Source: Chiloscyllium plagiosum
Taxonomy: Eukaryota
Assembly: GCF_004010195.1 (NCBI RefSeq)
Contig: NC_057752.1
Coordinates: 5,634,971-5,698,970 of the forward strand
Length of the DNA stretch: 64,000 nucleotides
Reading direction: 5' to 3'
Shown here: in pieces, positions 1 through 57,942 of the stretch
How positions within the stretch are numbered: position 1 is the stretch's first letter
Layout of the letters: each line of letters begins with the position of its first letter
Program-made: the position numbers and the translations under genes
Notes under the pieces: generated by a model
Database searches by the model: none
Seen by the model: the letters and a program-made list of their open reading frames with translations, nothing else
What the model was told of the DNA's origin: nothing

Positions 1-212
1 CTCCGCCCCCACCCCCACTCCGGCCTATCACCCTCACCTTGACCTCCTTCCGCCTATCGCATTTCCAACGCCCCTCCTCCCTACCTTTTATCTTAGCCTG
101 CTGGACACACTTTCCTCATTCCTGAAGAAGGGCTCATGCCCAAAACGTCGATTCTCCTGCTCCTTGGATGCTGCCTGACCTGCTGCACTTTTCCAGCAAC
201 ACATTTTCAGCT
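1..212 (+). mobile_element. Penelope-like element 3' pseudo-LTR fragment (family A), cut by the window edge; hammerhead motif at 118-153 with GAAA decayed to AAAA
   Basis: Nearly identical (reverse complement) to 57658-57867. Contains ATTCCTGAAGAAGGGCTCATGCCCAAAACGTCGATT and GGATGCTGCCTGACCTGCTG, also found at the ends of the RT/GIY-YIG copies in this window. Confidence 0.85.
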
Positions 213-249
213 CTTGTTTTAAATGAAGCCAATTTTGGGGCTAGGTTAT

Positions 250-560
250 GACCTAGTGGTATTTTCACTGAACTATTAACCAGATAATGTTCTGGTTTCA
301 ATCTCACCATGGCAGATAGTGGAATCTGAATTCAATATTGGAATTAAGAGTCTAATGATGACAATGAAATCATTGTCAATTATCAGGAAAAAAATCCATC
401 TGGCTTGCTAATGTCCTCTAGGGAAAGAAGTCCAGCATACAGGCAGCTACAGATCCACAGCAATGTGGGTGACTCTTAACTGTTCTCTGGGCAATTACAA
501 ATGAGCAATAAATGTTTGTCCAGCCAGTGACATTCACATCCCATGAATGAATTAACAAAG
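250..560 (+). mobile_element. tRNA-derived SINE (family B) with a LINE-derived 3' tail
   Basis: A/B-box-like head (TAGTGG...GGTTTCAATCTC). Body and tail (GCAATAAATG...CACATCCCATGAATGAAT) are shared with copies at 2205, 27890, 28646 and 46550. Confidence 0.75.
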
Positions 561-610
561 GAAAATAGAGTTAATTAATTACTAAATATGAGAAGCATTG
601 GTATTGCAAT

Positions 611-900
611 GCACGGTGGCACAGCAGTTAGCACTGCTGCCTCACATCGCCTGAGACCCGGGTTCAATTCCCGCCTCATGCGACTGACTGTGTGGAATTT
701 GCACCCCGTGTCTGTGTGGGTTTCCTCCGGGTGCTCCGGTTTCCTCCCACAATCCAAAGATGTGCAGGTCAGGTGAATTGGCCATGCTAAATTGCCCGTA
801 GTGTTAGGTAAGGGGTATATGTAGGGGTATGCGTGGGTTGCGAGTCGGTGTGGACTTGTTGGGCCGAAGGGCCTGCTTCCACACTGTAATGTAATCTAAT
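611..900 (+). mobile_element. HE1-type V-SINE
   Basis: tRNA-like head (GGTGGCACAG..TTAGC; GGTTCAATTCCC), V-domain GTGTCTGTGTGGGTTTCCTCCGGGTGCTCCGGTTTCCTCCCAC, CR1/HER1-like tail and TAATC repeats. Confidence 0.92.
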
Positions 901-1528
901 ACACATGGATTACAAAGAAGAGGCCAGTAAAGAAAGATAAGTGTTTAAAAAATGTTGATTGGTCTCAATTGTTTGTGCACAGCTAATAGTTGAATGTTGC
1001 AACCACTGCAGTGGATGTTACCAATAGCATTGGCAGTTGAACAAAACATCTTTGAGATTCTTGGCTTTGTAGGCTAATTCAAGTTCCTTTATCCTGATTC
1101 CTGTTCAAATCAGTTTAAAGTATTGGAAGTTAGAGAGGGTCTTTATCTGCAACACAGCAGTGACTTGGGTAAAGTTAACCAACTATAACTTTCACAGCAT
1201 GTTAACACTTGAATCTAGCCTGGTACACATGACAACATTCAGTCCCATTAGTTCACTCCAGTAGAGTTGAAACTGGCTTTTTTAACCCCGATGTTTGTGT
1301 ATTCTTCAAAGAGAAAAATACAAATTGTGTATGTTGTTTAGGAATAATCCACAGAGGTTGGCTCGCTATTCAACAGCAAGTCGTTAGACCCTCATTATAT
1401 CTGTAGTCACAAGAGATGACAGTCCAGTCTGTTTGAAGTTTCTTTGACACCTTTGTCATATCCCATTAGTCTCAAACAGAAGATTTTTACACCTGCAGTT
1501 TTTGTCTCTGTAGCAGTCCTCTTTTAAA

Positions 1529-1564
1529 ATTCCTGAAGAAGGGCTTATGCCCGAAACGTCGATT
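1529..1564 (+). ncRNA. Minimal type-I hammerhead ribozyme motif (PLE-type), intact core
   Basis: CTGAAGA (1533-1539), an extra A, stem II GGGC-TTAT-GCCC, GAAA (1553-1556), palindromic ACGT helix III, GTC triplet (1558-1560), and a short imperfect stem I ATTC/GATT. Confidence 0.75.
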
Positions 1565-1621
1565 CTCCTGTTCCTTGGATGCTGCCTGACCTGCTGCGCT
1601 TTTCCAGCAACACATTTTCAG
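1530..1621 (+). mobile_element. 92-bp Penelope-derived mini-insertion starting at a hammerhead motif
   Basis: Flanked by TSD CTCTTTTAAAA (1519-1529 / 1622-1632). Sequence matches the family A pLTR. Confidence 0.9.
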
Positions 1622-1759
1622 CTCTTTTAAAAACAACACATTTTAGAATTAAAAGACTGAAAATATTCACACTGTACTTTGAGTTTCTGACCCACGGTCA
1701 GGACAGGTGTGAAGCTAGTACAATTATAGCCATTTTCACATTGATCCAAACAACATGTT

Positions 1760-2010
1760 TTGATTCATTCATGGGATGTGGGTATCACTAGCTATGCAAG
1801 TATTTGTTGTCTGTCCCTAACTTCCCCTTAAGAAGGTGGTAGTGAATTGTCTTCTTGAACGGCTGCAGGCTATGTGGTGTAGATACATCCACAGTGCTAT
1901 TAGGGAGATTTGATCCAGTGACAGTGAAGAAACAACAATTTATTTTCAAGTCAGGATGGACTTAGTTTGGAGGGGCACTTGCAGACGGCATTGTTTCCAT
2001 GTATTTGAAG
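1760..2010 (-). mobile_element. 3' end of a CR1/L2-group LINE (tail shared with SINE family B)
   Basis: Similar to 11765-12000 and 40440-40650. Its reverse complement ends in the ...CACATCCCATGAATGAAT tail. Confidence 0.65.
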
Positions 2011-2204
2011 TCACAAATTTAAAACTATCCAAACTCAGCTATACCATCACTTCAGGTGGAGAGCAGGCCTTTCTTATTTTGGCTATGCTTCGTATCTGAT
2101 CTATTTATTGACCTCTGCTTTCTAAAGCTGTACTTTAAAGTATCATCATCACTCAAGCTCAGACAGTGCATTGGCATGACTCTTGGATCAAGGGCGGGGT
2201 AAAA

Positions 2205-2578
2205 TAATAGTAATGTGATTGGATGAGTAATCCAGACACCTGAACTCGAGACACAACTTCAAATCCTATCATGGCAACTAGCAAATTTGAATTCAATTAA
2301 TTAACCAAGACAAAGAAAGCTTGTACCAGATTGTTGTTAAAAACCAATCTGGATCACTAATGCCTTCCTGGGGAGGAAATCTACTGTCTTTACCTGGTCT
2401 GGCCTACATGTGACTGGAGCCACAGAGCAATGTCATTAACACTTAGCTGTCTCTCCACTGCCCTAGCAAGTCATTCCATTGTATTGAACCACTGCAGAAA
2501 AAATGTGTCCCTACCCTATGTGGACTGCAGTCACCCTTGAGGAAAATGCAAATGTGCAATAAAGGCTAGCCTTAACGG
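2205..2578 (+). mobile_element. SINE family B, tail interrupted by a solo LTR (resumes ~3231-3247)
   Basis: Shared motifs GGATCACTAATG and TTACCTGGTCTGGCCTACATGTGACT. The tail remainder CCATGAAGGAACAAAAA follows the LTR. Confidence 0.7.
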
Positions 2579-3230
2579 TGACACGATACTGTGGCTTTAA
2601 GAGGTGTATTTTGTCCTGTTTTTTTTTTGAAGAGAGGTTTTAAGACAGATGTATCAAACTGTCTATCTGAATTCAATAAAGTAAACAGCTTGTGAGACCT
2701 TGGGTTTTCTTTAAAGTTGGAACAAAAGAAGTAGCCTGAAAGGGTGGGATCAAACTCCCCCAGAGCCAGGATTTTCAGTTTTAGTTTTTCAGTGTCAATT
2801 TCTGCTGGGGTCTTGAAGTTGGGTTTGGAAGCTGCACTATATCTCTCCCTGCTATTCTCTCTCTCTCTCTCTGAATTTTCTCTTGATATTTTTTACTCCT
2901 CGACTGGAGAATTGCCCGTGAGACAATGTATTTTACTGAATTTGCCTTTGCCAAGGATGTGTTTATGGGATGTTACTACATTAAACAAGTTACTGTTTAG
3001 TAGTTAAATAACCCATAATTCTGTTAAGTTTTCCAATAGAGTTAATTATTCAAATGTCTTTCTTTTGTATATTTAACTATAGTGTATGAATAAAGTACTT
3101 TATTGCTTCATATTTGGTAGTTTGACCAATTAATTTGCACCCAGCATGCAACACCTGGCACTTTCCTTTAAAATAAGATATATTTAGGGTCATCTTAATA
3201 TATTTTGAAGGTTTGGACTGGTCCATAACA
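2579..3230 (+). mobile_element. Solo LTR, family 1 (~640 bp)
   Basis: Collinear with 27147-27785 and with the reverse complement of 62132-62763. Ends ...GGTCCATAACA. Confidence 0.8.
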
Positions 3231-4160
3231 CCATGAAGGAACAAAAAGGGAAGTGCTGCAGCAACATTTTGAATCTCAGCACCATAGAAAATTAAACATG
3301 TTTTCTACTATGTTAAAACCACCTCTTAAACATTCAGATGACTGATAAGGTCAGAAATTAATCTTTCTGCTCTTCAAAAACTGTTCCTTAATAAAAGACT
3401 GAACCACTGGTCAACTTGCGACATAAATTAGCAAGCTGTACCCATTTGCCATGCAGTGAGATCATCTGTCACAGCCAGCTGCAAAACCACAGCACAAATA
3501 TGAAATTCAGGAACATGTCCCTTGACTTGAAGCATGTGCTGGAACCAAACCGCGCAGTTAAACCTCAATAACTAGTTTTAACTGGTTTTAATTTGTACCC
3601 CTGTATTTTATTTCGCAAAATAAATTGTTACTTTTGCTAGTTTTCAACTCTGGACAGACATAGGCCAACAAAATTTGTCTGAAAATACATAAATGTTTTA
3701 CTAAATGCCATTAAATGTTGGTGATTCTGGAGTGGGTTTGGCCCTTCATACAGCAGCCATCTATTATGGTGGGGCACAGGGGATTTTCATTTTTTGCATA
3801 ACTTGCACCAATGCTGAATAACTTCCAGTCCCCAGTGTGATTTGCAGTATATGGAACATGATGCTGATACATCAGATTCAGTGAGTTTTTCATTATTAGT
3901 AGCTATTTGTGCACTTTTGTCTTGTAGTGTCCCCATACAATTTAATTTGGGCAATGCAAGTACAGTATATTTAAGTCCAAAATAAACATGGAAAACTGGG
4001 ACAAATGCAAAAATACTGGAACTGCACAAAGATTAATCAGTTTTTGAAAGGGAAAGACTGACTATTAGCTGAAGAGTTTGCCCTGAAACAGCAATTTTAT
4101 TAACATTTGTTTAAATCAGCGTCCTGAAGCCCTCACCCAAACTGTTAACATATCACTTTT

Positions 4161-4425
4161 TCACATTCTGTGTCTCCATGGGTTTTCTCTGGTTGCTCCA
4201 GTTTCTTCCCACAGTCCAAAGATGTGCAGGTTAAATGGATTGACCATGCTAAATTGCCCCGTAGTGTCCAGGGATATGCAGGCTAGGTGTATTAGCCACA
4301 GGAAATGCAGGGTTGCAGGGATGGGATAGGAGGGTGGGTCTGAGTGAGATGCTCTTTGGAGACTCAGTGTGGATGTGATGGGCCAAATGGCATCAATCTT
4401 TGTGCCATGCATTTATCTCTATAAT
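4161..4425 (+). mobile_element. 5'-truncated HE1-type V-SINE (variant body)
   Basis: V-domain ...CCCACAGTCCAAAGATGTGCAGGTT...CATGCTAAATTGCCCC and a CR1-like tail. Confidence 0.8.
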
Positions 4426-4427
4426 CT

Positions 4428-5165: not shown

Positions 5166-5671
5166 TGGCCCAGCACCTCTATTTTAATTACTTAGTTCCT
5201 AACTTGATTTTTTAAAAAAGTCCTGGTCTTTTAATTTGTAGCCTGTAAGTATTTCCCCTATTTACCTTTAAGCTGAAAGTAACCTAAAAAATATGATCAA
5301 ATTGGTAGCTATCACCAACCAATGAACTTATGATTGACCTGTGATCTCACTCTTTTGTGCTGGACCCCTGATCCTGAGCTTCAATTTATCCTATTTTAAA
5401 AAAACCTTATTACCTATGAGCCAAAAAACAAGCAAAGAGCATCTCTTACCCTCTGCACTTAATTCCCATGCTTTCTCTCATTCTGAATGTGATCTCCTTG
5501 TTGACCTTGCGAAGCTTACCCACGTAAGTGGTTCCATGGAAGAGGAATTCTTTTACTGCTCTCAATGCCTTTGCATCCTTCCTAAAGTGTCGTGCCCAGA
5601 ACTGGTTACAATACTAGATGGAAAGGAGTTCCAGGAATTTGACCCAGTGATACTGAAGGAATAGTGATGTC

Positions 5672-6663: not shown

Positions 6664-6771
6664 ACTTCTGACCTTATAACGGTGAGAAGGTAATTGATGA
6701 AGCACTTGAAGATGGTTGGGCTAAGTACAGTATCCTGTAGAACTCCTGTGGAGATGTTCTGGAGCCGAGAT

Positions 6772-8159: not shown

Positions 8160-8453
8160 GGGCGGCACTGCTACCTCACAGTGCCAGAGACCCGGGTTCA
8201 ATTCCCGCCTCAGGCAATTGTCTGTGTGGAGTTTGCACATTCGCCCCGTGTCTGCGTGGGTTTCCTCCGGGTGCTCTGGTTTCCTCCCACAGTCCAAAAA
8301 TGTGCAGGTTAGGTGAATTGGCTATGCTAAATTGCCCGTAGTGTCAGGTGTAGGGGAATGGGTCTGGGTGGGTTGCTCTTCAGAGGGTCGGTGTGGACTT
8401 GTTGGGCCGAAGGGCCTATTTCCGCACTGTAAGTAATCTAATCTAATCTAATC
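8160..8453 (+). mobile_element. HE1-type V-SINE
   Basis: B box GGTTCAATTCCC, V-domain and (TAATC)4 tail. Confidence 0.92.
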
Positions 8454-8516
8454 ATAAAGGAATCTCACTCAAAAAGAGCACAGAAGCACTTTGAAAGAAT
8501 GGCATAGACTTGGTGG

Positions 8517-10677
8517 CAAAAGTGAGTACTGCAGATGCTGGAGATTAGAGTCGAGAGTGTGGAACTGGAAAAGCATGGAAGGTCAGGCAGCGTGCGAGAA
8601 ACAGGAAAGTTGACATTTCAAGCATACTCCCTTCATCAGGAATGAGGCTTGTGGACCAAGGGGACTGAGAGATAAATGGGAGAGGGGTGGGGAAGGTAGC
8701 TGAGAGTGCAATAGGTAGATGGAGGTGGGGGTAAAGGCGATAGGTTGGAGAGGAGGGTGGAGCGAATAGGTGGGAAGGAAGATGGATAGGTAGGACAGAT
8801 CATAAAGGTGGTGCTGAGCTGTAAGGTTGGAACTGGGATAAGGTGGGGGAGGGGAAATAAGGAAACTGGTGAAGTCCACATTGATAGCATGGGGTTGGAG
8901 GATCCCGAGGCAAAAGATGAGGCGTTCTTCCTCCAGGCGTCGGATGGTTAGGGAGTGGTGATGGAGGAGGCCCAGGACCTGCATGTCCTTGGCGGAGTGA
9001 GAGGGGAGTTGAAGTGTTCAGCCACGGGACGGTGGGGTTGGTTTCTGCAGGTGTCCCAGAGATTTCTCTGAAGCGCTCTGAGAGTAGGCATCCTGTCTCC
9101 ACAATGTAGAGGAGACCGCATCGGGAGCAACGGATACAGTAAATGATGTGTGGAAGTGCAGGTGAAACTTTGATGGATGTGGAAGGCTCCTTTGGAGCCT
9201 TGGACGGAGGTGAGGGGGAGGTGTGGGCGCAGGCCCACCCAAGCCCTCCACCAAGACTTTTGTTTCCCTGGCCCCAACACCTCATCTTCACCATGGACAT
9301 CCAGTCCCTATACACCTCCATCCGCCATGACCAGAGTCTCCAAGCCCTCCGTTCCTTCCTCTCCTGACATCCCTACAAGCACCCTTCCACTGACACTCTA
9401 ATTTATTTGGTTGAACTGGGCCTCACCCTCAATAATTTCTCCTTTGAATCTTCCCACTTCCTCCAGACGAAAGGGGTAGCCATGGGCACCCGCATGGGCC
9501 CCAGCTATGCCTGTCTCTTTGTCGGCTATGTGGAATTGTCTATCTTCCGTAGTTCCACCGGCACAATTCTCTACCTTTTCCTCTGCTACATTGATGACTG
9601 CATCGGCGCCATCTTGTGCTCCCAGGAGGAGGTTGAGCAGTTAATCAACTTCACCAACACATTCCACCCCGACCTTAAATTCACCTGGACCATCTCAGAC
9701 ACCTCCATCACCATCAATGGTGACCGACACTGACATCTTCTACAAACCCCCCGACTCCCACAGCTACCTGGATTACACCTCCTCCCACCCTGCTTCCTGT
9801 AAAAATGCTATCCCTTATTCTCAATTCCTCCACCTCTACCGCATCTGCTCCCAGGAGGTCCACTTCCAACACAGAACACACCAGATGGCTTCCTTCTTTA
9901 AAGACTGCAATTTCCCTTCCCACATGGTTGATGATCCCTCCAGCGCATCTCATCCACTTTCCACACCACCGCCCTCGAACCCCACCCCTCCAACCGCAAC
10001 AAGAACAGAACNNNNNNNNNNNNNNNNNNNNNNNNNNNNNNNNNNNNNNNNNNNNNNNNNNNNNNNNNNNNNNNNNNNNNNNNNNNNNNNNNNNNNNNNN
10101 NNNNNNNNNNNNNNNNNNNNNNNNNNNNNNNNNNNNNNNNNNNNNNNNNNNNNNNNNNNNNNNNNNNNNNNNNNNNNNNNNNNNNNNNNNNNNNNNNNNN
10201 NNNNNNNNNNNNNNNNNNNNNNNNNNNNNNNNNNNNNNNNNNNNNNNNNNNNNNNNNNNNNNNNNNNNNNNNNNNNNNNNNNNNNNNNNNNNNNNNNNNN
10301 NNNNNNNNNNNNNNNNNNNNNNNNNNNNNNNNNNNNNNNNNNNNNNNNNNNNNNNNNNNNNNNNNNNNNNNNNNNNNNNNNNNNNNNNNNNNNNNNNNNN
10401 NNNNNNNNNNNNNNNNNNNNNNNNNNNNNNNNNNNNNNNNNNNNNNNNNNNNNNNNNNNNNNNNNNNNNNNNNNNNNNNNNNNNNNNNNNNNNNNNNNNN
10501 NNNNNNNNNTCCATCTACTGCACTCTCAGCTATCTTCACCCCCCCCCCCATCCCATTTATTTCTCTTTCTCAGTCCCTCGGCTCACAAGCGTCATTCCTG
10601 ATTAAGAGTTTATGTCCGATTTTCCTGTTCCTTGAATGGTGCCTGACCTGTGCTTTTTCAGCGCCACACTATCGACC
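8517..10677. mobile_element. Penelope-like retroelement with inverted arms (minus arm 8517-~9228: tail, pLTR, GIY-YIG; plus arm ~9229-10677: RT ... pLTR)
   Basis: RT motifs FTMDIQSLYTSI, QTKGVAMGTRMGPSYACLFVG, YIDD and LKFT. GIY-YIG IIYCIRCSRCGLLYIVETG. TSD CATAGACTTGGTGG (8503-8516) / CATAGGCTTGGTGG (10678-10691). Confidence 0.92.
10012..10509. other. Assembly gap (498 N)
   Basis: Run of N. Confidence 1.
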
Positions 10678-10779
10678 CATAGGCTTGGTGGGCCAAATGA
10701 CCCTTTTATTTACCACAGTATAGTACTCTCAAAAGCTGGAGGACCACACTTCTGTTTTTTTTTTAAAAGCCAGATTCTG

Positions 10780-16299: not shown

Positions 16300-18060
16300 A
16301 GAAATGAGCAAAGACAGAGCAGATTCTGAGTGGTCTGGCAGACTTAAATGCAAATAAATATCCAGGGCAGATGAAATGCATCCCACATTGTTGAGTGAGG
16401 CAAGGGAGGAGATAGGGGCATTTGCAAAAATATTCAATTCCTGTCTGGCTGCAGGAGAGGCACCGGAGGACTGGAGGACAGCCAATATAGTACCGTTATT
16501 CAAGAACAGAGCAAGGGATAAACCAGGAAACTATAGGTCAGTTGGTCTAACCTCAGTGGTGGGAAACTATTGGAAGCAATTTGGAAGGACAGAATCTGTC
16601 TGCATTTGGTAAGGCAGGGATTAGGCAAGAACAGTCAGCATGATTTTGTTCAGGCAAGGTCATGTCTGACCAACTTGATTGAATTTTTTTTAAAGAGTTG
16701 ACCAGGTGTGTAGATGAGGGCAATGCTTTTGATATAGTTTACTTGGACTTCATAAAGGCTTTTGATAAAGTCCCACATGGAAGACTGGTAGCAAAGGTAA
16801 GTGCCTGTGCGATCCAAGGGAATTTGGCAAATTGGATCCACAATTGGCTGAGTGGCAGAATGCAGTGGGTGATGGTTGAGGGGTGTTTTTCCAACTGGAA
16901 ATCTTGTGTTCAGTAGGGTCCCTTCGGGGTCAGTGATGGGGCCCTTGCTATTTGTAGGTTATATAAATAGTTTAGACTTGAATGTAGGAGGGTTGATAAG
17001 TTCACAGATGATACAAAATTTGAGGGGTGGTAAACAGTGAGGAGGATAGCCTTTACCAACAAGTGGATAAAGACTGGCGGGTCAGATGTGCTGATCAGTG
17101 GCAAATAATATTCAATCTGATAAGTGTGAGGTAATGTGCTTGGGCAGGACAAAGAAGGTAAGGGAATGCATGATGAATAGTAAGACCCTGGGAAGCACCA
17201 AGGATCACCAGGCACAAGCAACAGTGAGGCAAGTAGATCAAGTGGTTAAGAAGGCATAGAGTCAAGAGCAGGGAGGTGATGTTGCAACTGTTTTAAAAAA
17301 AAAGGTTAGGCCACAGCTAAAATATTGTGTGCAGTTCTGGAATCTACATTATAGGAGGGATGCGATAGCACTGGAGAGGGTGCAGGGTAGATTTATCAGG
17401 ATGTTGCCTGAGCTGGAGAGTTTCAATGATGAAGAGAGTTTGGATAGACCGGGGTTGTTTTCCTTCAAGCGGAGGAGATTGAGAGAAGTCATGATTTGAG
17501 ATGTATAACATTATTAGGGGCATAGGTATGACAGACCAGAAGAAACTGTTCCCCATGATGGAGCAATTAGGGCGGCACAATGGCACAGTGGTTAGCACTG
17601 CTGCCTCTCAGCGCCAGGAACCCAGGTTCACTTTTTACCTCAGGCAACTGTCTGTGTGGAGTTTGCACATTCTCCCCGTGTCTGCGTGGGTTTCCTACGC
17701 GTGCTCCGGTTCCTCCCACAATCCAAAGATGTGCAGGTTAGGTGAATTGGTCATGCTAAATTGCCCATAGTGTTAGGTGCATTAGTCAGGGGTAAATATA
17801 AGGTAGGGGAATGGGTCTGGGTGGGTTACTCTTTGGACGGTTGGTGTGGACCTGTTGGGCTGAATGGCTTGTTTCCATACTGGAGGGAATCTAACCTAAT
17901 CTATTCTAACCAGGAGCATTGATTTAATGTAAGGGGCAGGAGGTTGAAAGGGAATGTGAAGAAAAACATTTTCATCCAGATGGTGGTGAGAAGATAGAAC
18001 TCACTACTTGTAAGGGTGGTAGAGACAGAAACACTCTCAACATTTAAGAAGTACTTAGTG
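16300..18060 (+). mobile_element. CR1 LINE ORF2 (RT) relic; its 3' end resumes at ~21446-21575 after the PLE
   Basis: PEDWRTANIVPLFK, PGNYRSVGLTSVVG and DIVYLDFIKAFDKVPHGRL. 3' UTR TATGGGCCAAGTGCTGG after 21481. Confidence 0.9.
17570..17903 (+). mobile_element. HE1-type V-SINE nested in CR1
   Basis: GGGCGGCACAATGGCACAGTGGTTAGCACTGCTGCCTC head, V-domain and tail. Confidence 0.92.
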
Positions 18061-18072
18061 TTGGATGCAACT

Positions 18073-21000
18073 AGGAGAAAGTGAGGACTGCAGATGCTAG
18101 TTGAGTGTGTGGATCCTTCTCAGGATGAAGAACACCAGAGGTCTTTTTACTGGTCTGGGAGAGTGTAGTCTGAGCTGGGGCAAGGCTGACAGGGAGAGTA
18201 GATAGCAACACATGGCTGTGAGCATGGAGCGGAGGATCTGGAGGGAGAACCGTTTCTGGAGACTTTTGATTCGCTGTAGGAAATGGTAGTCCTGCTCGGT
18301 TCCAAATTGCGATGCTCTGAATGTAGTCTGGAGTTATGGGGGATGAGTCGATTGAGTAGGCAGGTGCTGAAGTCATTATTCACGCAACCATTACAGCCAC
18401 CACTACCACCATAAATGATGTCGCTTCTACTTCCGGCACCAAGCTCACTGTTGTACCGCTTCTGCAAATGCTGCTGGTAGTTCTGCCTCTGCGATCGCCA
18501 CCAGAACTATGCCTCCGCGATCACTGCCAGAGCTAGGGCCTCCACGAGCGCTGCCAATACCTCTACCTCCACGATCACCGCCAGAACTACGGCCTCCGCA
18601 AACATCGCTAATACCTCCGCCTCTGCAATTGCTGCCTGCCACATCACCTCTGCCCCTGTGGTTGCCAATGCTCCTTCCACCCCCACTGACATCACTGACT
18701 GGAAAACCAATGACGACCATGCCGTCCCCACTGCAACTGCCGATAGCACCACTTCCATGAACGCCGCCAAGAGCATCACTTCCACCCCTGCGGTTGCAGC
18801 CGAACATGCAACCTCTGCCCCCGAGAACGCCACCATTGATGTCACTTACTGAATCACTGCTGACGATGTCCCCTTCGCAGCCACTGTCGCTGAGGGTACT
18901 GCTTTCATGAATGCCATCAAAAATGTCACTTCCGCCCCTGCGGTTGCTACCGAACACACCACTTCTGCCCCCATGACCACCACTGTACATGTCACTTCCT
19001 CCAGTGATGTCACCTATGATGTCACTAACAATCACATGATCACCTGCACTCCAGAGACCGTCTCCAGTTCTACACCAAGCCCCAGTCTTGTCGTGTTTTT
19101 ACCAGACCGCCCCCTTGCTGAGGATGAACGATCAGTCAACAGTAAAGGTCTCCCCTTCATCCCAGTACACACCCGGATCAATGAATTCTGTACGTGTTGC
19201 GACATTTAACTTTTCTTCCATCACCTCCGCCTTTGTGCTTACTCTTTCAATCGTGACTCCCATCCACCCTCCAAAGACCCCTTCTCCTACCTCCAACATA
19301 CTCCATCCTCTTGGACACCCCGCTGGCCTCCTACCTTCCCTCAACCTCTTTATCTTCAACTGCTATTTGACATTGACCACATCAACCTGTCCACTCTCCT
19401 CACCTACTCCAATCCTCACCCTTTCAATGCACAGCCCTCCACTCCAACCCCAACATCACCATCAAAACAGCAGACACTGACCTCTACTTCGCCGAAGCCA
19501 GATGTCAACTCGCTGACACCTCCTCCTACCGCCCCCTCCGCCACGACTCCACCTCTCATCACCAAACCATCATCTCCCAAACCATTGACAACCTCATCAC
19601 CTCAGAGGATCTCCTATCCACACCTCCAACTCATAGTTTCCCAACCCTGCACCACCTGATTCTACCTGTTACTCAAAGTCCACAAACCTGACTGCCCTGA
19701 TTGACTTATTGTCTCTGCCTGCTTCTTCCCCATTGAATTCACCTCCTCATACCTCAACTCCATCCTGTCCCCCTTGGTCCAGGAACTCCCCACATATGTT
19801 CAGGACACTACCCTCCACCTCCTCCATGACTTTCGATTCCCCGACCCCCAGCACCTCAACTTCACCATGGGCATCCAGTCCCGATACACATTCATCCCTC
19901 ATGGGACAAGCCCTCCATTTCTTCCCCTCCCACCGAACTAACCAGTCCCCCTCTGCTGACACTCATTCAATTGGCAGAACTGGTCCTCACCCTCAATAAC
20001 TTCTCCTTCAAATCCTCCCACTTCCATCGGACCAGAGGGGTAGCCATGGGCACCAGCATGTGCCCCAGCTATGCCTGTCTCTTTGGGTATGTGCAACAGT
20101 CCATCTTCGGTAGTTATACCGGCACCTTTTCCTCCACTACATCGATGACTGTATCAGCGCTGCCTCTTGCTCCCACGAGGTGGTCAAATGATTTATCAAC
20201 TTCCCCCATTCCTTCCACCCTGACCTCAAGTTCACCTGGATTATCTCGGACACCTCCTTCCCATTCCTGGACCTTTCCATCTTCAGCGACCAACTCAATA
20301 CCAATGTCTACTTCAAACTCCTGACTCCCACAGCTACCTGGACTACACTTTTTCTCACTCCCCCTCCTGTAAAAATGCTATCCCTTACTCGCAATTTCTC
20401 CGCCGTATCTGCTCCCAAAAGGACCAATTCCACTCCAGAGCATCCCAGATGGCCTACTACTTCAAGGACTGCAATTTCCCCTCCCACATGATCAACAATG
20501 CCCTCCAGCGCATCTCCTCCTCTTCCTGAACCTCTGCCCTCAAACCCCACCCCTCCAATCACAACAAGGATAGAAACCCCCTGGTCCTAACCTTCCACCC
20601 CATCCCACTAAACTCCAGATACATCACATCATCCTCCGCCACTTCTGCCACATACAGTCAGACTCCTCCACCAGAGATATATTTACCTCCCCACCCCTAT
20701 CTGCATCCCGCAAAGAGTATTCCTTCCGTGACTCCCCTGTTAGGTCTGTTGCTACCCCCCCACCCCCATCACCACCTTCCAAGGCCCCAAAGGGTATTTT
20801 CACATCCGGCAGAGATTTTCCTGCACATCCACCCACCTCATCTAGTGCATCCATTGCTCTCGATGTGGTTTCCTCTACATCAGGGAGACAGGACGCCAAC
20901 TCACAGAGCGTTTCAGGGAATATTTCTGGAACAAACGCACCAATCAACCCCACTGCCCTGTGGCTGACCACTTCAACTCCCCCTCCTATTCCTCCAAGGA

Positions 21001-21445
21001 CATGCAAGTCTTGGGCCTCCTCCACTGCCAAATCAGAGCCACCCAACACATGGAGGAAGAACGCCTCATCTTCCGCCTTGGGACCCATCATCCACATGGC
21101 ATCAACATCGAGTTCACTAGTTTCCAAATCTCCCCTACCTCCACATCATTCCAGATCTAACCCTCCAACTCAGCACCGCTCTCTTGACCTGTCCTACCTG
21201 TCCATCTTCCTTCCCACCTATCTGCTCCACCCCACCCACCAACCTATCACAATTACTCCCTACCTGCATCCACGTTTTGCCTTTCCACCTGCCTCCCCTC
21301 CCCCCACCCCGCCTCCCCAATTTATCTCTCATCCCCCTTCCACATTACTGATGAAGAGCTTGTGTCCAAAACATTGACTCTCGTGATTCTCGGATGCTGC
21401 CTGACTGACCTGCTGTGCTTTTCCAGTGCCACCCTTTTCGACTCT
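18073..21445 (+). mobile_element. Long decayed Penelope-like element (inverted tail 18073-18098, inverted N-terminal segment ~18099-18372, then S/T/A-rich linker, RT, GIY-YIG and pLTR on +)
   Basis: DERSVNSKGLPFIP, TRGVAMGTSMCPSYACLF, TACATCGATGAC (YIDD), GIY-YIG region ~20820-21120, and a decayed hammerhead at 21344-21380. Confidence 0.9.
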
Positions 21446-21640
21446 TAGCCTTATATGCCTTGGTATCACAAGTCTACATCTATGGGCCAAGTGCTGGAAA
21501 ATAGGATTTGATTTTGGTGGTTGTTTTTGACTTGTGTGGATGTGATGGACTGAATGGCCCTTCTCTGTGCTGATCTCTCTGTCTCTATTTTGAATATCCC
21601 CCCAAGATGATTTTTTTTTTCTGTTGGCAAAGCTGCAGAA

Positions 21641-21942
21641 GTATTAGCACTGCTGCCTCTCAGTGCCAGGGACCTGGGTTCGATTCCTGCCTCGGGCAAC
21701 TGTCTGTGTGGAGTTTGCACATTCTCCCCGTGTCTGCATGGGTTTCCTCCGGGTGCTCCGGTTTCTTCCCACAATCCAAAGATGTGCAGGTCTGGTGAAT
21801 TGGCCATGCCAAATTACCCATAGTGATAGGTGTGTTAGCTGTGGTAAATATAGGCTCGGGGAATGGCTCTGGCTGGGTTACTCGTCAGTGTGGACTAGTT
21901 GGGCCGAAGGGCTTGTTTCCATACTGTAGGGAATGTAATCTA
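21641..21942 (+). mobile_element. HE1-type V-SINE
   Basis: TTAGCACTGCTGCCTC, GGTTCGATTCC, V-domain and tail. Confidence 0.9.
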
Positions 21943-22572
21943 AAAAATACTCCAATGGTAGTATAATTGGCACTCAATCCTGTAGGCAGTTATTATTCAG
22001 GTTTTTAAAAATATTGAGTATTAGTCCATTGTCTGTACTTTATGAGAGTGAACACACACAATACAGAGCACAGTTATAAAACAAGTTAAGGAAGTCTCCA
22101 AATGTTCACTCTGAAAGTCATTATCATCTTTATTTAGCAATTTTTAAAAAGAAATTGCAACTCCCTGTTTGTGGAATTGGGAACATTGAGATAAATTAAA
22201 ATCTTCTGTGATTTTTTGGACCTTCTAAAATTGCTCCCCAGCCACCGTTTTGCTTGTGTTGAATAGTACCATCATAACAGTGAACGCCTCGCCGTCTGGC
22301 TGAGGAATTGTCCGATGAAACACATCTGTTATGAGTTTTCCATCTCTATAAAACTCATCAGAATTGTGCAGTAAAAAAGTGAATTGTTTCGTTACCACTT
22401 CCTGTTTACAGCTGGAAATTAACTTGCTTGCTCAGCTTTGTCTTGCTGCAGAAATTCAAGGGCCCATTGGGTCACGCAAGTGTTGGATGCCCTTTTCTGA
22501 AGGTTGCCTTGAATGGCTGGTGGTGAATTATCATTGTATCTCGGAGATTGATTGATACTGCAAGACTGGGAG

Positions 22573-23606
22573 TCAAGAGTGTAGTGCTGGAAAAGCACAG
22601 CAGGTCAGGCAGCATCCGAGGAGCAGGAGAATCAATATTTCAAGCATCAGCCCCTCATCAGGAATAAGGCTGTGGCCCAAGGGGACTGAGAGATAAATGG
22701 GAGGGGAGTGGGGCTGGAGGGAAGGTAGCTGAGAGTGCGCTAGGGTAAATGGAGGTGGGGGCGAAGGTGACAGGAGAAACCATTCCCTCCGCGACTCTCT
22801 TGTTAGGTCCATGATCCCCACCAACCCACCCTCCCGGCACCTTTATCTGCCACCGCAAGAAGTGTGAAACCTATACCCACATCTCCTCCCTCACCTCCGT
22901 CCAAGGCCCCAAAGGATCCTTCCACATCTGACAGAGATTTACCTGCACTTCCACACACATCATCTACTGTGTCGGTTGCTCCTGATGTGGTCTCGTCTAC
23001 ATAGGGGAGACAGGACACCAACTTGTGGAATGTTTCAGAGAACATCCCTGGGACACACGCACTAAACAACCCCACTGCCCTGCAGCCGAACACTTTAACT
23101 TCCCCTCCCACTCCACCAAGGACATGCACGTCCTGGGCATCCTCTACTGTCAAACCCTAACCACCCAACGCCAGGAGGAGAAACACCTCATCTTCCACCT
23201 TGGGACCCTCCAACCACACTGGATCAATGTGGATTTCACCAGTTTCCTCATTTCCCCTCCCCCTAATCCCAGATCCAACCTTCCAACTCGGTACCGCCCT
23301 CATGACCTGTCCCACCTGTCCATCTTCTTTCCCGCCTATTCGCTCCACCCTCCTTTCTGACCTATCACCTTCACCCCCACCTTCATCCACCTATCGCTTT
23401 CCCAGCTACCTTCCCCCCCAGCCCCACCCCCTCTGCCATTTATCTTTCAGACCCCCTAGGCCACAAGCCTCATTCCTGATGAATGGCATATGCTTGAAAC
23501 GTCGATTCTCCTGCTCCTCAGATGCTGCCTGACCTGCTGTGCTTTTCCAGCACCACACTCTTCGACTCTGATCTCCACTTTTCTGCAGTCCTCACTTTCT
23601 CCTAAT
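22573..23606. mobile_element. Penelope-like insertion with inverted arms (minus pLTR 22573-~22775; plus GIY-YIG + pLTR + tail ~22776-23603)
   Basis: GIY-YIG fragments (YIGETG; AEHFNFPSH; EEKHLIFHLGTLQPHWIN). TSD AAGACTGGGAG (22562-22572 / 23607-23617). Confidence 0.9.
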
Positions 23607-23689: not shown

Positions 23690-26600
23690 GATCATCACCG
23701 TGCAGTACAGAACCTTTGGCCCTCGATGTTGCGCCAACCTGTGAAACCAATCTGAAACCCATCTAACTTATACTTTTTCATTATCATCCATATGTTTATC
23801 CAATGATCATTTAAAGGCCCTTAAAGTTGGCAAGTCTGCTACTGTTGCAGGCAGGGCAACGCACACTGTTCCACGCACTTAATACTCTCTGAGTAAAGAA
23901 CCTATCTCTGACATCTGTCCTATATCTGTCACCCCTCAATTTAAAGCTATGTCCCCTCATGCTAGCCATCACCATCAGAGGAAAAAGGCTCTCACTGTCC
24001 ACCCTTTCTAATCCTCTGATCATCTTGTATGTCTTTATTCACAACCTCACAACCTTCTTCTCTCTAACAAAAACAGCTTCAAGTCCTTCAGCCTTTTGTC
24101 ATAAGACCTTCCCTCCATACCAGGCAACATCCTGGTAAAATCTCTTCTGCACCCTTTCCATTGCTTCCTCATCCTTCCTATAATGCGGTGACCAGAACTG
24201 TACACAATACTCCAAGTGTGGCCCCACCAGAGTTTTGTACAGCTGCAGCATGACCTCATGGCTCTGAAACTCAATCCCTCGACCAATAAAACCTAACACA
24301 CTGTACTCCTCCTTAACAACCCTTGGGTGGCAACTTTCAGGGATCTATGCATATGGACACCAAGATGTCTCTGGTCATCTACACTACCAAGAGTCTTACC
24401 ATGAGCCCAATACTGTGTATTCCTGTTACTCCTGCCACAGTGAATCACCTCACACTTTTCTGCATTAAATTCCATTTAATGCCACCTCTCAGCCCAGCTC
24501 TGCAGCTTATCTATGTCCCTCCGTAACTTGCAACACCCTTCTGCATTGTCTACAACTCCACCAACCTTAGTGTCATCCACAAATTTACTAACTCATCCTT
24601 CTACTCTCTCATCCAAGTCATTTATAAAATGATAAACAGCACTGGCCCCAAAACAGATCCTTGCGGTACACCACTAGTAACTAAACTCCATACTTTACCC
24701 GTGTCCACCTGTTTGGTCACCTTCGCAAAGAACTCAATAAGGCTTGTGAGGCATGACCTACCCTTCACAAAACTATCCCTAAACAAATTATCCCTTTCTA
24801 GATGATTATAAATCCTATCTCTTATAACCTTTTCCAACACTTTACCCACAACCGAAGTAAGACTCACTGGTCTATAATTTCCAGGGTTGTATCGACTTGA
24901 ACAAGGGGACATTAGCTATCCTCCTGTCTTCTGGCACTATTCCTGTAGACAATGATGACATAAAGATCAAAGCTAAAGGCTCTGCAATCTCCTCCCTGGC
25001 TTCCCAGAGAATCCTAGGATAAATCCCATCTGGCCCAGAGGACATTTCTATTTTCACACTTTCCAGAATTGCTAACACCTCCTCCTTATGAACCTCAATC
25101 CTGTCTAGTCTAATAGCCTGTATGTCGGTATTCTCCTCAACAACATTGTGTTTTTCCTGTGTGAAATCTGACAAAAAATATTCATTTAGCACCTCTTCTA
25201 TCTCCTTGTACTCCACTCACAACTTCCCACTACTGCCCTTGACCGGCCCTGATCTTACTCAAGTCATTCTTTTATTCCTGATGAACCTATAGAAAGCTTT
25301 AGGGTTTTCCTTGATCCTACCTGCCAAAGACTCCTCATGTCCCCTCCTGGCTCTTATTCGCTCTCTTTCGGTCCTTCCTGGCTAACCTGTATCTCTCAAC
25401 TGCCCTAGCTGAGCCTTCATGTCTCATCTTTACATTAGCCTCCTCCTTCCTCTTCACAAGAGATTCAACTTCTTTAGTAAACTACAGTTCCCTCGCTCGC
25501 TCGACCACTTGCTCCCTGCCTGACCGGTACATACTTATCAGGGACATGCAGTAGTTGTTCCTTGAACAAGCTCCACATTTCAATTGTGCCCATCCCGTGC
25601 AGTTTCCTTCCCCATCCTATGCATCCTAAATCTTGCCTAATTGCATCATAATTACCTTTCCCCCAGCTATAACTCTTGCCCTGTGGTACATACCTATCCC
25701 TTTCCATCGCTAAAGTAAACATAACCGAATTGTGGTCACTATCACTAAAGTGCTCACCTACTTCCAAATCTAACACCTGGCCAGGTTCATTATCAGTACC
25801 GAATCCAATATTGCCTCGCCTCTTGTTGGCCTATCTACATACTGTGACAAGAAACCCTCCTGCACACAATGGACAAAAACGGACCCATCTAAAGTTCTCG
25901 AACTATAGCGTTTCCAGTCAATATTTGGAAAGTTAAAGTCCCCCATACCAACTAGGTAAAAACAATGACTGCAGATGCTGGGCTTTTGCCCGAAACGTCG
26001 ATTTTGCCTGTCCTCGGATGCTGCCTGAATTGCTGTGCTCTTCCAGCACCACTGATCCAGAACCCCCATACCAACTACCCTGTTACTTTTGTTCCTATCC
26101 ATAATTATGTTTTCCAGAGCTGTAGAGGAAAGGATTGCACTTTTCAGAGGCCTATAGAAAACTCCCACCAGGGTGACCTCTCTTTTCCTGTTTCTAACCT
26201 CAGCCCATACTACCTCAGTAGGCTAGTCCTCATCAAATGTCCTTTCTGCCACTGTAATACTGTCCTTGACTAACAATGCCACACCTCCCCCTCTTTTACC
26301 ACCTTCCCTGTTCTTACTGAAACATCTAAACCCCAGAACCTGCAACAACCATTCCTGCCCCTGCTCTATTCCATGTCTCCGAAATGGCCACAACATCTAA
26401 GTCCCAGGTACCAACCCATGCTGCAAGTTCACCCACCTTATTCCGGATGTTCCTGGCGATGAAGTAGGTACACTTCAAACCACCTTCCTGCCTGCCGGTA
26501 TACTCTTGCGACTTTGAAACCTTATTTATGACCACACTACTCTCAACCTCCTGTACACTGGAGCTACAATTCAGGTTCCCATCCCCCTGCTGAATTAGTT

Positions 26601-32817: not shown

Positions 32818-33011
32818 AGGAGATAATGATGCTGGAGAGTCAGAGTCAATAACGTATGGCGCTGGAAAAAGCACAGCAGGTCAGGCAGCATCCGAGGAGC
32901 AGGAGAGTCGACGTTTTGGGCAGGATCTGATGAAGGGTTCTGCCCAAAATGTGGATTTTCCTGCTCCTTGGATACCACCTGACCTGCTGTGCTTTTTTCA
33001 GTGCCACACCT
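32818..33011. mobile_element. Fold-back (palindromic) PLE mini-insertion
   Basis: Two ~65-bp inverted pLTR arms around a loop containing CTGATGA. TSD AATCTACTGAGAAT (32804-32817) / AATCCACTGAGAAT (33012-33025). Confidence 0.88.
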
Positions 33012-33059
33012 AATCCACTGAGAATTCAGTGATACTTCACAGCTACCTCCAAATGTCCA

Positions 33060-33374: not shown

Positions 33375-33548
33375 GAGGGTGCTGGAGATACTCAGCAGCA
33401 TCTGTGGAGAGACCCACACAGTTAATATTTCTTACCGGACTTGAAATATTGACTCTGTTTCACGCTGCACAGATGCTGCCAGGCCTGCTGAGTTTCTCCA
33501 GAATTCTGTTTGTTTCGGACTTCCAGTATCCACAGTATTTTACTTCTA
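33375..33548. mobile_element. Older palindromic PLE-pLTR-derived repeat
   Basis: TGCTGGAGATACTCAGCAGCATCTGTGGAG ... CACAGATGCTGCCAGGCCTGCTGAGTTTCTCCAG inverted arms, and a decayed tail TTCCAGTATCCACAGT. Confidence 0.65.
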
Positions 33549-34026: not shown

Positions 34027-34657
34027 CTGAAAGGACAACAGGATGACAGTCTTGCTAACAGGAGAGTTGAAATTCAGTCATTTACTTTCCCAAGACAGGG
34101 AATTCTGACCGAATCTGCATCTATGATTTGATTTCTGACATATTATTTCTTTCTTAAATTGTGAAGCCATCTTAGAGCTCAACGGCCACAAGACAAGAAC
34201 CCCCTCAACTTCCAGAGGCTCTGACTGACATGCAGCACTTTCCTGTTCATCTGGTATTGAGGTACCAGCTGGGCAAAGTATGAGAGGTCATGGTTCAGAG
34301 AATATACTTGCACATGTTTCCCCAAAAGGAACAGCAGTAGACACAGTCCCAGAAATTTGCAGGACAAAGTTGACTCAATGAGATCACTCCCCACTTGGGG
34401 ATTTAACTGGACTGTAAAATCAAGCCGAGTTAAACCAGCATCCAATGTGATCAGTTTCGCTACCAGGCAGTTCCAATTCAAATGATCTCCTGCATTTGGA
34501 GGAGAAATTTGAATGACTGTGTGTTCAGCCTGGGAGCAAATTTCACCAGGTGAAATAAATGGCAGATTTATAACATTGGTCCATTAACAGAAGAGACTGA
34601 AGACATACATTGAGGTGATGGAGGACAAGACTATTAAAATGGCAGAGACAAGACGCT

Positions 34658-34779
34658 AGGCGAAAGTGAGGACTTGCAGATTAGAATCTGGAATGTGGTG
34701 CTGGAAAAGCGCAGCAGGTTAAGCAGCATCTGAGGAGCAGGACAATCGACGTTTCGGGCATAAACCCTTCATCAGGAAT
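34658..34779 (-). mobile_element. 122-bp tailed PLE mini-insertion with an intact hammerhead core (34744-34779)
   Basis: Reverse complement ATTCCTGATGAAGGGTTTATGCCCGAAACGTCGATT. Imperfect TSD GAGACAAGACGCT (34645-34657) / GAGACAGGACACT (34787-34799). Confidence 0.85.
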
Positions 34780-38028: not shown

Positions 38029-38127
38029 ATTGAGAGAGTGGTGCTGAAAAAGCACAGCAGGTCAGGCAGCATCCGAGGAGCAGGAAAATCGACGTTACGA
38101 GCATAAACCCTTCATCAGGAATGATAC
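38029..38127 (-). mobile_element. 99-bp tail-less PLE mini-insertion (hammerhead 38087-38122, GAAA mutated to GTAA)
   Basis: TSD TACAAGTGGAAAGT (38015-38028 / 38128-38141). Confidence 0.9.
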
Positions 38128-51985: not shown

Positions 51986-52044
51986 ATGGACCATATAAAG
52001 GCTTGGTATGAACTCACGATAAATACATTTTGTTTTTAATTTCT

Positions 52045-55139: not shown

Positions 55140-55895
55140 CACCTCCATCTGGTCTGGAACAGTTAAATTGCTTAGTGACATTCAAATCTGAACCGATCAA
55201 AATAAACATCTGGTAAAATGGTCACCCAGCTCTAATGGAGGTTGATACCATCGCAGCTGTATCAGTGATCGCAGAACCAGTCTTGAACAAAATTCACTCT
55301 GGACTCCAACCTTATGTTTGCACAGCACCTTGGTCAGACTGAGAACATATACCGGGGAACCTTTACAGATTAAGGGGGCAACTTTGGTTCCGGTCTCATA
55401 TGAGAAGCAGTTGCTGCAATTCCTACTGATTGTAGTAAAAGGCTCGGGCCCAAGCTTGATGGGGTGGAATTGGTTGAGAAAGATTCATCTTGATTGGCCC
55501 AACATTTTCCAATTAGAAAATGGCTGCCCGAGTGAGGTCTTAATTAAATACCTGGAGGTTTTTTTAAGGAAAGTCATGGGACGATCAAAGGCACCAAGGC
55601 CATCTTGCATATTGTCCAGGAAGCAATTCCATGATTCTGCAAGGCCCGTCCAGTGCCATTTGCCTTACAGGCAAAAGTAGAGCCAGAAATCAGGAGGCTT
55701 GAAAACGAAGAAATCATCAAACCCATCCAGTTTGTGGAATGTGTAGCAGCGGTTATGCCGGTTTTGAAGCCCGACAGGTCGGTACACCTTTGTGGGTATT
55801 TTAAACAAATGGTAAATGACTTCTAACAGCTGGATAATACCCCAATCCCTTGCGTAGAGAACTTGTACACAAAGTTGGTGGCGGAAGGAGAGGGG
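55140..55895 (+). mobile_element. Ty3/Gypsy LTR-retrotransposon pol relic (protease + RT N-terminus)
   Basis: MEVDTIAAVSVI (decayed DTGA protease site, ~55236), LRTYTGEPL, GPSLMGWNWL, VLKPDRSVHLCGYFK and YPIPCVENLYTKL. Confidence 0.85.
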
Positions 55896-55899
55896 AACA

Positions 55900-57250
55900 G
55901 TGAGAAACTGTAATGACTTCTTCAGGAGACAGATGCAAACTGCAACCGACAGGGTACCCTTCATTGTCCAGTACTTCCCAGGAGCCGAAAAACTACGCCA
56001 TGTTCTCCACAGCCTACAGCACATTATCAATGAGGATGAGCACCTCACCAAGACCTTCCCCAAGTCTCCACTTCTCATCTTTAAACAGCCACCAAAGCTC
56101 AAACAGATCATTGTCCGTAGCAAACTGCCCGGCTTTCAGGACATCACCATACAACCATGTCACGGCAGACACCGCAACACATGTCAGAGTGTCTACACGT
56201 ATACCACCATTACGCGTGGGGACTCCTCCCATCATGTACTTGGCAGGTACTCATGCGACTCAGCCAATGTTGTCTATCTCATATGGTGCAGGCAAGGATG
56301 TCCTGAGGCATGGTACATTGGTGAGACCAAACAGAGGCTATGGCAACAAATGAATGGACACCGCACAACAGTCAACAGACAGGAGTGTTCCCTCCCAATC
56401 GGAGAACACTTCAGCGGCCTGGGACATTCGACCTCGGACCTTTGGGTGACCGTCCTCTAAGGTGGACTTTGGGACAGGCAACAACGCAAAGTGGCCGAGC
56501 AGAGGCTGATAGCCAAGTTCAGTACCCATGGGAATGACCTCAACCGGGACCTTGGGTTCATTTCACACTATGGGTGACCCCACTGCAACACGCAACACAC
56601 ACACACACACACTCTGTCTCATTCATAAGCTCTCCCTCATATGCTCACATGTATGCACCCACACTCACTCTCTCATAGACTTATACCCCTTTACACTCGC
56701 ACACGTACACACAGTCTCTCACAAACACTCATAAGCTCCCCCACCCCCCCCCCCCCCCACCCCCGCACACACACCCACGTACAAGTTTGTGGGGTGAATT
56801 TGTACTTGCCGAATTGCACTTTATTTTGCTCAAAAACTACATTAATCCATGTAAGATTCTGTAAATCAATTTTTTAGATTAGAATCAGTCTAAACTTTAT
56901 GGCACAGACAGTCTCATACAGGGCACCTCACACCTTAAATGCATTATCTGGGCTGACATAACACCAATTGTTAAAGTTCACTTGAGAATGTAAGTTTTAA
57001 ATGTTCTGCGATTTACATATGAAAGAACTGAAACCAACATGTTCATTCTAAAAGATGAGAGATTTAACAAATAATCCAGGTCTTTTTCAATATATAATTT
57101 CAGTTACATCACACTGTAAACTTTTGCTATAGATTCTGTGTCTTACGATCTTATACTCTATTACCACCTGATGAAGGAGGAGCGCTCTGAAAGCTAGCAC
57201 TTCCAAATAAACCTGTTGGACTATAACCTGGTGTTGTGTGGTTTTTAACT
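55900..57250 (+). mobile_element. Second Penelope-like family (B): GIY-YIG endonuclease + long 3' UTR
   Basis: ORF 55900-56460 contains RVPFIVQYFP and YSCDSANVVYLIWCRQGCPEAWYIGETKQRL...MNGH...EHF. CA-rich tract and a terminal hammerhead. Confidence 0.9.
57163..57200 (+). ncRNA. Minimal hammerhead motif of PLE family B (partly decayed)
   Basis: CTGATGA (57168-57174), an extra A, stem II GGAG/CTCT, GAAA (57189-57192), palindromic AGCT and a CTA triplet. Confidence 0.6.
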
Positions 57251-57374
57251 AAATCCTTCTAATGAAAGCAAATGTTCTTTAAACAGTTTTATATGTACAT
57301 GATCACAGGATTACAAAGGAATGAGATCCTAATATTTATTAGAGTTAAGGCCTCCACCACACGCATGACATTAA

Positions 57375-57942
57375 GGGCGGCATGGTTACTCAGTGGTTAG
57401 CACTGCTGCCTCACAGCACCAGGGATCCAGGTTTGATTCCAGCCTCAGGCAACTGTGTGGAGTTTGCACATTCTTCCCGTGTCTGTGTGGGTTTCCTCCG
57501 GGTGCTCCTGTTTCCTCCCACAGTCCAAAGATGTGCGGGTTAGGTAGATTGGCCAGGCTAAGTTGTCCATAGTGTTAGGTGCATTAGTTAGAGGGAAAGG
57601 GGTCTGGGTGGGTTACTCTTCAAGGAGAAAGTGAGGACTGCAGATGCTGAAGATCAGAGCTGAAAATATGTTGCTGGAAAAGCACAGCAGGTCAGACAGC
57701 ATCCAAGGAACAGGAGAATCGACGTTTCGGGCATAAGCCCTTCTTCAGGAATGAGGAAAGTGTGTCCAGCAGGCTAAGATAAAAGGTAGGGAGGAGGGAC
57801 TTGGGGGAGGGGCATTGGAAATACGATAGGTGGAAGGAGGTTAAGGTGAGGGTGATAGGCCGGAGTGGGGTTACTCTTCAGGTCAGTGTGGACTTGTTGG
57901 GCCAAAGGGCCTGTTTCCACACTGTAGGGAATCTAATCTAAT
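57375..57942 (+). mobile_element. HE1-type V-SINE interrupted by a PLE fragment
   Basis: Head, V-domain and TAATC tail. The body is split at 57622/57868. Confidence 0.92.
57623..57867 (-). mobile_element. 245-bp tailed PLE pLTR insertion with an intact hammerhead core (57717-57752)
   Basis: TSD GGGTTACTCTTCA (57610-57622 / 57868-57880). Reverse complement ATTCCTGAAGAAGGGCTTATGCCCGAAACGTCGATT. Confidence 0.92.

Follow-up and report, generated by a model that had tools for sequence, protein, structure and literature searches.

Minimal hammerhead ribozymes have been described in the pseudo-long terminal repeats (pLTRs) of metazoan Penelope-like elements (PLEs), where they have a CUGANGA core, an extra base between A9 and 10.1, a G10.1-C11.1 pair, a palindromic 15.2-16.2 without loop 3 and a short helix I, and occur mostly as single dispersed copies with opposite-strand close pairs and a U3-A8 variant in one family (PMC4209133, Cervera and De la Pena 2014). 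The same characters were found in a stretch of 64,000 nt of the shark Chiloscyllium plagiosum (contig NC_057752.1, positions 5,634,971 to 5,698,970; hereafter the window) and elsewhere in its genome. We found no shark named in that paper, and its counts, published in 2014, were about 4,000 motifs in coelacanth and 9,000 in Xenopus, compared to at least 95,500 exact intact motifs here. The commonest shark subfamily also differs in a U-U mismatch at the third pair of helix I.

In the Anolis Poseidon element PAc (PMC11167929, Frangieh et al. 2024), as in the shark, the hammerhead is located at the junction of the pLTR and the open reading frame (ORF), two 3' end sites lie approximately 34 nt apart (the tail), no RNA reads end at the cut site, and uncut RNA appears to be the template. 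In contrast, the shark linker is CX4CXXC (suggesting a Neptune/Nematis type), the first Met of the ORF is approximately 160 nt after the core, and there is a 5' end hotspot with an upstream TATA, which we did not find described for PAc. Insertions of endonuclease-containing (EN+) PLEs (PMC3846280, PMC8557442) share with those of the shark the head-to-head inverted 5' copy, the palindromic joints, an optional tail of 30-40 bp, target duplications of 8-15 bp and, in the rotifer Adineta, a putative TATA and initiator in the pLTR. They differ in that most shark insertions are cut down to an end module of 95-130 nt and that shark joints are centered on the hammerhead front. Non-LTR retrozymes (PMC7229834; bioRxiv 10.64898/2026.07.22.740005) are likewise short type-I hammerhead units related to pLTRs, but they form head-to-tail arrays, whereas the shark copies are solo or head-to-head. 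No publication on shark Penelope hammerheads or on a helix I start site was found among the main texts covered, most subscription journals lying outside that coverage. The supplements of PMC4209133, PMC11167929 and the bioRxiv study, which sampled one cartilaginous fish, may contain motifs from sharks or profiles of 5' ends.

Earlier publications already cover the motif, the element that carries it and its mass dispersal. What an earlier note on the motif density of the window had missed is that the copies begin at the front edge of the hammerhead, and this lead on the start site is testable. We consider it probable that the motifs are dead, decaying copies of PLE minimal hammerheads, which are dense because transcription of the element begins at the hammerhead's first base and its RNA is primed internally. 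The copies are a large natural record on an open question, the role of the hammerhead for PLEs.

Hammerhead copies in the window and in the genome

When the window was searched with blastn and nhmmer using the copy at 1529 as query, 13 copies of one family (A) and one weak remnant were found. They are located at 118, 1529, 10594, 21344, 23472, 25980 and 32927 on the plus strand and at 8643, 22665, 32922, 34779, 38122 and 57752 on the minus strand, and represent approximately ten insertions because three pairs are inverted arms of single insertions. A second family (B) has one copy, at 57164 on the plus strand. Every position listed in the earlier note holds a copy, although copies on the minus strand had been given by their low coordinate without strand, and "~32925" is two head-to-head copies. 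Of the 13 A copies, 3 (1529; 34779, with one G-U; 57752) retain an intact core and stem II, in agreement with the intact cores reported at 1529, 34744 and 57717, and the motif of a different family reported at 57163 is the family-B copy, with its core intact. Flanking repeats of 8-15 bp were present in 6 of 12 insertions tested. The features are as follows.

9..215, plus strand: 3' end of a family-A PLE, truncated by an assembly gap at the window start; its hammerhead (118-153, plus strand) has G12 changed to A
1529..1625, plus strand: solo stub of 97 nt; helix I 5' strand 1529-1532, core 1533-1560, then tail; predicted cut 1560/1561; 11-bp target-site duplication 1519-1529 and 1622-1632
8515..10687, both strands: head-to-head inverted insertion with an 8-bp flanking repeat; minus arm 8515-9233 with endonuclease (EN) remnant and broken hammerhead at 8643; plus arm 9235-10687 with reverse transcriptase (RT) remnant 9368-9730, a gap and a deleted hammerhead at 10594
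18067..21452, plus strand: old near-full-length element; low-complexity N-terminal region, RT and EN remnants, broken hammerhead at 21344
18067-18370, minus strand: inverted tail and N-terminal block of the preceding element
22543..23604, both strands: head-to-head inverted insertion; minus arm 22543-22779 with decayed hammerhead at 22665; plus arm 22779-23604 with EN remnant 22986-23360 and broken hammerhead at 23472
25980..26053, plus strand: stub beginning in stem II; 15-bp flanking repeat
32819..33016, both strands: head-to-head stub pair whose joint lies within the hammerhead; the minus copy (32922) and the plus copy (32927) are both broken; flanked by a 9-bp repeat
33443..33503, plus strand: remnant of a third, related hammerhead-bearing family
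34657..34779, minus strand: solo stub from helix I, with an intact core (C3 at 34775) and a single G-U in stem II; predicted cut 34748/34747
38030..38122, minus strand: solo stub from helix I; A13 changed; 14-bp flanking repeat
55897..57250, plus strand: 5'-truncated family-B element; EN remnant 55858-56460, TATA-like TATAGA 57128-57133, hammerhead 57164-57200 (plus strand) with intact core
57623..57870, minus strand: young family-A 3' end with upstream repeat, full tail and 13-bp target-site duplication; the TTTATC box is at 57783-57778, helix I begins at 57752 and the intact core spans 57748-57721, with the cut predicted at 57721/57720

The intact copies have the core CUGANGA...GAAA...UH, with G10.1-C11.1 closing stem II and a single extra base following A9. 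Helix III is palindromic without a loop (ACGT in family A and AGCT in family B), confirming for both families the minimal type-I hammerhead proposed in the earlier note, and cleavage expected 3' of C1560 is the correct position by hammerhead numbering. Helix I varied. In its commonest family-A form, ATTC/GATT (24 of 80 descriptor matches), it consists of two pairs, a U-U mismatch and one pair; in the ATTC/GAAT subfamily (5 of 80) it has four pairs, and in family B three. The family-B copy at 57164 has a G-U closing pair and its helix I is broken after one pair. Stem II was GGGC/GCCC, GGAG/CTCC, GTTAC/GTGAC or GTC/GAC depending on the family. At the pair 10.2-11.2, G-C was found in 75,764 copies genome-wide, A-C in 1,039, G-U in 791 and A-U in 207, compared to 11 A-U copies expected from single changes. 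The A-U copies represent one compensatory event, since 96 of the first 100 carry one subfamily marker. These findings show that the structure is real between lineages: stem II covaries among subfamilies.

Several sampled loci contained a family with a U3-A8 core variant (TTGACAA), in which helix I is AGCT/AGCT and is preceded at 32 nt by TATAAATA, e.g. G000:C14:19510001-19710000. Hammerheads with a longer stem II (GTTACT/GGTGAC, and GTC/GAC with a long loop), found at G000:C2:23116294 and G000:C15:50621687, are probably from other Penelope-like families.

The motifs are not chance matches: genome-wide, 75,764 (A) and 19,737 (B) exact intact motifs were found, and none with the reversed patterns. 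This amounts to at least 95,500 in the 3.56-Gb genome, or one per 37 kb; under lenient matching, the intact density was one per 23 kb. Further searches were made in a non-random sample of 1.86 Mb, composed of the window, its flanks of 100 kb to either side, and 1.6 Mb taken from seven genes. In this sample, 80 matches to a structure descriptor were obtained, compared to 1 in the reversed sequence. A profile search recovered 337 A-like and 83 B copies, 420 in total, across 1.82 Mb of called bases, which extrapolates roughly to 0.8 million copies genome-wide. The density of approximately one motif per 5 kb reported earlier holds for all copies and not for the intact ones. The Infernal-type hammerhead search proposed at that time, run as Rfam cmscan on the window, found no hammerhead family at E<=1; therefore, Rfam cmscan is unsuitable for these motifs.

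Generic CTGANGA..GAAA matches at 4069, 6528, 22300, 22361, 25278, 32396, 37595, 46710 and 57647 were rejected as they fail the structure descriptor. In the region 22300-22361, which forms a short inverted repeat (ATGAGTTTT...AAAACTCAT), both strands contain words resembling a hammerhead.

The Penelope-like carrier

The motifs are located in terminal repeats of Penelope-like retroelements, and the carrier named in the earlier note was borne out by RT and GIY-YIG remnants directly upstream. RT remnants accompanied family-A ends at 12 loci fetched by an RT search (of 36,780 first-look candidates). GIY-YIG (PF01541, over cut-off) was found directly before the hammerhead in both arms of locus L201, and PF01541 was over cut-off in two of three proteins tested. 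At locus L209, a frame of 527 aa contains RT motifs and then LLYIGET, i.e. RT plus GIY-YIG at the C terminus, in one ORF. The CX4CXXC linker between RT and EN in this frame (CX2-5CxxC criterion, PMC8557442) suggests a Neptune/Nematis type. A Pfam search of seven decayed ORF fragments from the window gave no match.

The N-terminal block (18100-18370) has 11 relatives in the genome, and in 7 of them a family-A hammerhead or tail lies before the ORF start in the same sense, at a distance of 270-322 nt in six and with a deletion in the seventh. The order of the element is upstream repeat, hammerhead, tail and ORF. The hammerhead was found both before the ORF (at these 7 of 11 loci) and after EN, and also with the tail and in inverted pairs, in separate copies. 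The family-B element starting at 55897 aligned with another copy across 1,410 nt. Among the 420 sampled copies, no common element sequence was found past the tail. Fourteen candidate full-length tandems were rejected as independent or inverted insertions, several with assembly gaps. Gaps were present within the long head-to-head insertions at L193, L194, L207, L208, L210, L214 and L215, so long inverted copies are likely under-assembled. In the window, 18445-19100 is a Thr/Ala-rich low-complexity frame with a 27-nt repeat; it is part of the N-terminal region of the element and is variable among relatives.

Ends of the copies and the proposed start of the element RNA

When the 5' ends of 284 A-type copies were mapped relative to C3, 145 were at -7..0 (mode -4, 43 copies), 19 at -8..-39, 28 were longer, 65 were at +2..+20 and 24 later. 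Only 3 of 284 ended at the cut site (+28, range +25..+31). This mapping was ungapped; 53 of 337 copies had been excluded as other families and about a dozen more slipped in. With a gapped method, 142 of 218 core-bearing copies ended within 13 nt. None of 128 cores ended at C17. A bump of 5' ends at +33..+40 was rejected as a cut product, since it consists of other families and random truncation. Exact counts in the genome fell from 30,393 (from C3) to 18,012 (from -4) and at most 11,569 (from -8). In family B, 59 of 83 5' ends were at -9..0. Loose ends in RNA and DNA runs were also found at 57752/57751.

A TATA or TATA-like box is located approximately 30 nt before the 5' edge in four families. 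A TATAAA-like box lies 36-40 nt before C3 in 13 of 15 long B copies picked by regular expression, the other two being chance flank matches; 46 of 50 long A copies have TTTATC 32-38 nt ahead of C3; and three long copies, from families E and F, carry TATAAATA or CATAAATA 32-34 nt ahead of helix I. The 5' edge is not attributed to a splice site, since the closest AG is approximately 20 nt upstream and varies.

The 3' ends of 69 young copies formed two clusters, +85..96 and +120..130, approximately 34 nt apart. Head-to-head pairs within 100 nt involved 133 of 337 copies, and within 1.5 kb there were about 83 head-to-head compared to 19 tail-to-tail pairs. Inverted joints use short microhomologies.

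These ends are consistent with the following mechanism. The element RNA would start at the first bases of helix I, as the TATA spacing suggests, and the element protein may prime reverse transcription internally at the tail sites, by analogy with the anole element (PMC11167929). Priming at the 5' repeat of uncut RNA would give a run-off stub of 95-130 nt, whereas from the 3' repeat it would yield a long copy with random truncation; the head-to-head pairs could form when two such cDNAs join or when one folds back. The template RNA is taken to be uncut because the core lies within the stubs and because the start of an insertion lies ahead of the core and hardly ever at the cut site; in this the shark copies match one in vitro study. 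In the active element, the motif may be a slow, protein-assisted cutter that removes the capped first 32 nt rather than a processor of host RNA. If the reading of the start site is true, it explains the abundance of stubs. A stricter version is put forward tentatively, as somewhat less than probable: the hammerhead would be the first 36 nt of a TATA-driven transcript, run-off stubs without promoter, made by internal priming on uncut RNA, would number hundreds of thousands, the ribozyme would act as a decapping off-switch on the mRNA of the element instead of processing the transposition template, and cut RNA would never be an insertion template.

Several points weigh against the start at helix I. 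The likely RNA start at the 5' pile-up is placed there by its spacing from the box, and the Penelope promoter of D. virilis was measured as TATA-less, with starts upstream of an intron before the hammerhead, according to PMC2377424 and PMC4209133. The long A references were picked by TTTATC, so the 46 of 50 show fixed spacing and not presence; TTTATC is also not a consensus TATA. The 5' edge is not a single base, as ends spread from -5 into the core, and the ungapped mapping undercounts long copies of divergent subfamilies (28 compared to 62 rows at >=30 nt). The loci examined did not yield an intact tandem element of full length.

The spread of ends into the core (65 of 284 at +2..+20) also fits a rather unlikely explanation, in which the same element has a 5' pile-up formed by RT stalling or template switching after the hammerhead unwinds, or by EN cutting at the ATT before the core. 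The anole endonuclease prefers 5'-ATT-3' (PMC11167929), the inverted joints have microhomologies, and self-priming has been proposed for such palindromic joints (PMC3846280). However, the ends are at ACAAC/ATCAC in family B, AGTT in E and AGCT in F, not at ATT, and these families still have a TATA box approximately 30 nt upstream. Moreover, the few ends at -8..-39 (19 of 284 copies and 1 of 69 young ones, whereas 24 of 25 young copies past -8 reach -40) form a step without the gradient of a stall.

It is highly improbable that the stubs are a separate non-autonomous family, similar to short interspersed elements (SINEs) or retrozymes, that spreads through its own hammerhead-cut circles. Stubs carry their own target-site duplications, retrozymes have been proposed to derive from pLTRs (bioRxiv 10.64898/2026.07.22.740005), and a few DNA contigs (runs X1 and X15) join 57752 back to 57623 as head-to-tail units of 130 nt. 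Against this, the stubs match each autonomous subfamily, without the upstream box, and the unit is bordered by helix I and by the tail, with the cut site at neither border. No head-to-tail hammerhead arrays were found in the window, and only 6 of 337 sampled copies had a same-strand neighbor within 170 nt. The joined contigs are, in their own right, a possible seed of retrozyme-like arrays.

Cutting of host RNA

The earlier note had proposed that the genome could hold a very large number of potentially self-cleaving or trans-dimerizing sites in nascent RNA. It was found to be very improbable that cutting of host pre-mRNA by intact copies, or their pairing in trans, is frequent enough to be of consequence. 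This is the case even though exact intact cores number at least 95,500, 60 of the 181 sampled copies with a core are intact and one subfamily (ATTC/GAAT) has a helix I of 4 bp. The strand of the copies was compared in seven genes, represented by nine blocks whose orientation was set by Pfam matches to exons (PF01044, PF06484); we take the genes to be catenin, vinculin and teneurin. There was no sense-strand depletion of intact motifs in the seven genes (36 of 66 on the sense strand, p=0.54), the 95% interval of 0.42-0.67 being compatible with a mild depletion, nor of all copies (198 of 370, p=0.19). In the vinculin-like gene, all five intact copies were on the sense strand. One block had 2 sense compared to 7 antisense copies; it lies in an intron that hosts a gene on the opposite strand. 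The strand test suggests that a vertebrate genome can tolerate approximately 100,000 intact cores with no selection being visible.

Decay pointed in the same direction. The catalytic G12 was changed in 21% of the 181 core-bearing copies, compared to 14-27% for other CpG sites. Core G was changed as often as tail G (5.9% and 5.9%), and core T likewise as often as tail T. Core A, which tells against neutral decay, was changed less than tail A (2.8% compared to 5.5%, p=0.01; 5 and 3 sites, respectively); this may be detection bias or slight conservation. In stem II, helix-breaking A-C (1,039) was not rarer than pair-keeping G-U (791).

In folding, with energies that ignore tertiary contacts and protein, stem II formed with P 0.88-0.99 and the first pair of helix I with P 0.004-0.08. 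The best dimer was in another register, and the catalytic intermolecular pair had P 0.002. The rarity of close same-strand pairs further argues against working sites. Monomers of such published motifs were uncleaved (PMC4209133), and the anole motif depends on protein (PMC11167929).

Family-A sequence was present in a polyA RNA run (X20), with 2,613 reads on 57623-57870 in both orientations. No pile-up of starts or ends was seen there, and the strand ratio was flat across the cut site (1.58, 1.51, 1.45 and 1.49); these single-cell reads, of which approximately 2 in 100 were covered and whose species match to the window is putative, are a weak test of ends and cover only this family-A copy. Overall, the copies give no sign of host RNA cutting or of selection, their catalytic positions decay neutrally, and widespread cutting of nascent RNA is not supported.

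Two other features of the window were noted. Beside the family-B element, the frame at 55246-55680 resembles, by eye and with no Pfam match, the protease/RT start of an LTR retrotransposon. A repeat family of 300 nt is present at 611-906, 8165-8457, 17569-17909, 21644-21943, 59739-60040 and 61503-61769, and is presumably a tRNA-derived shark SINE.

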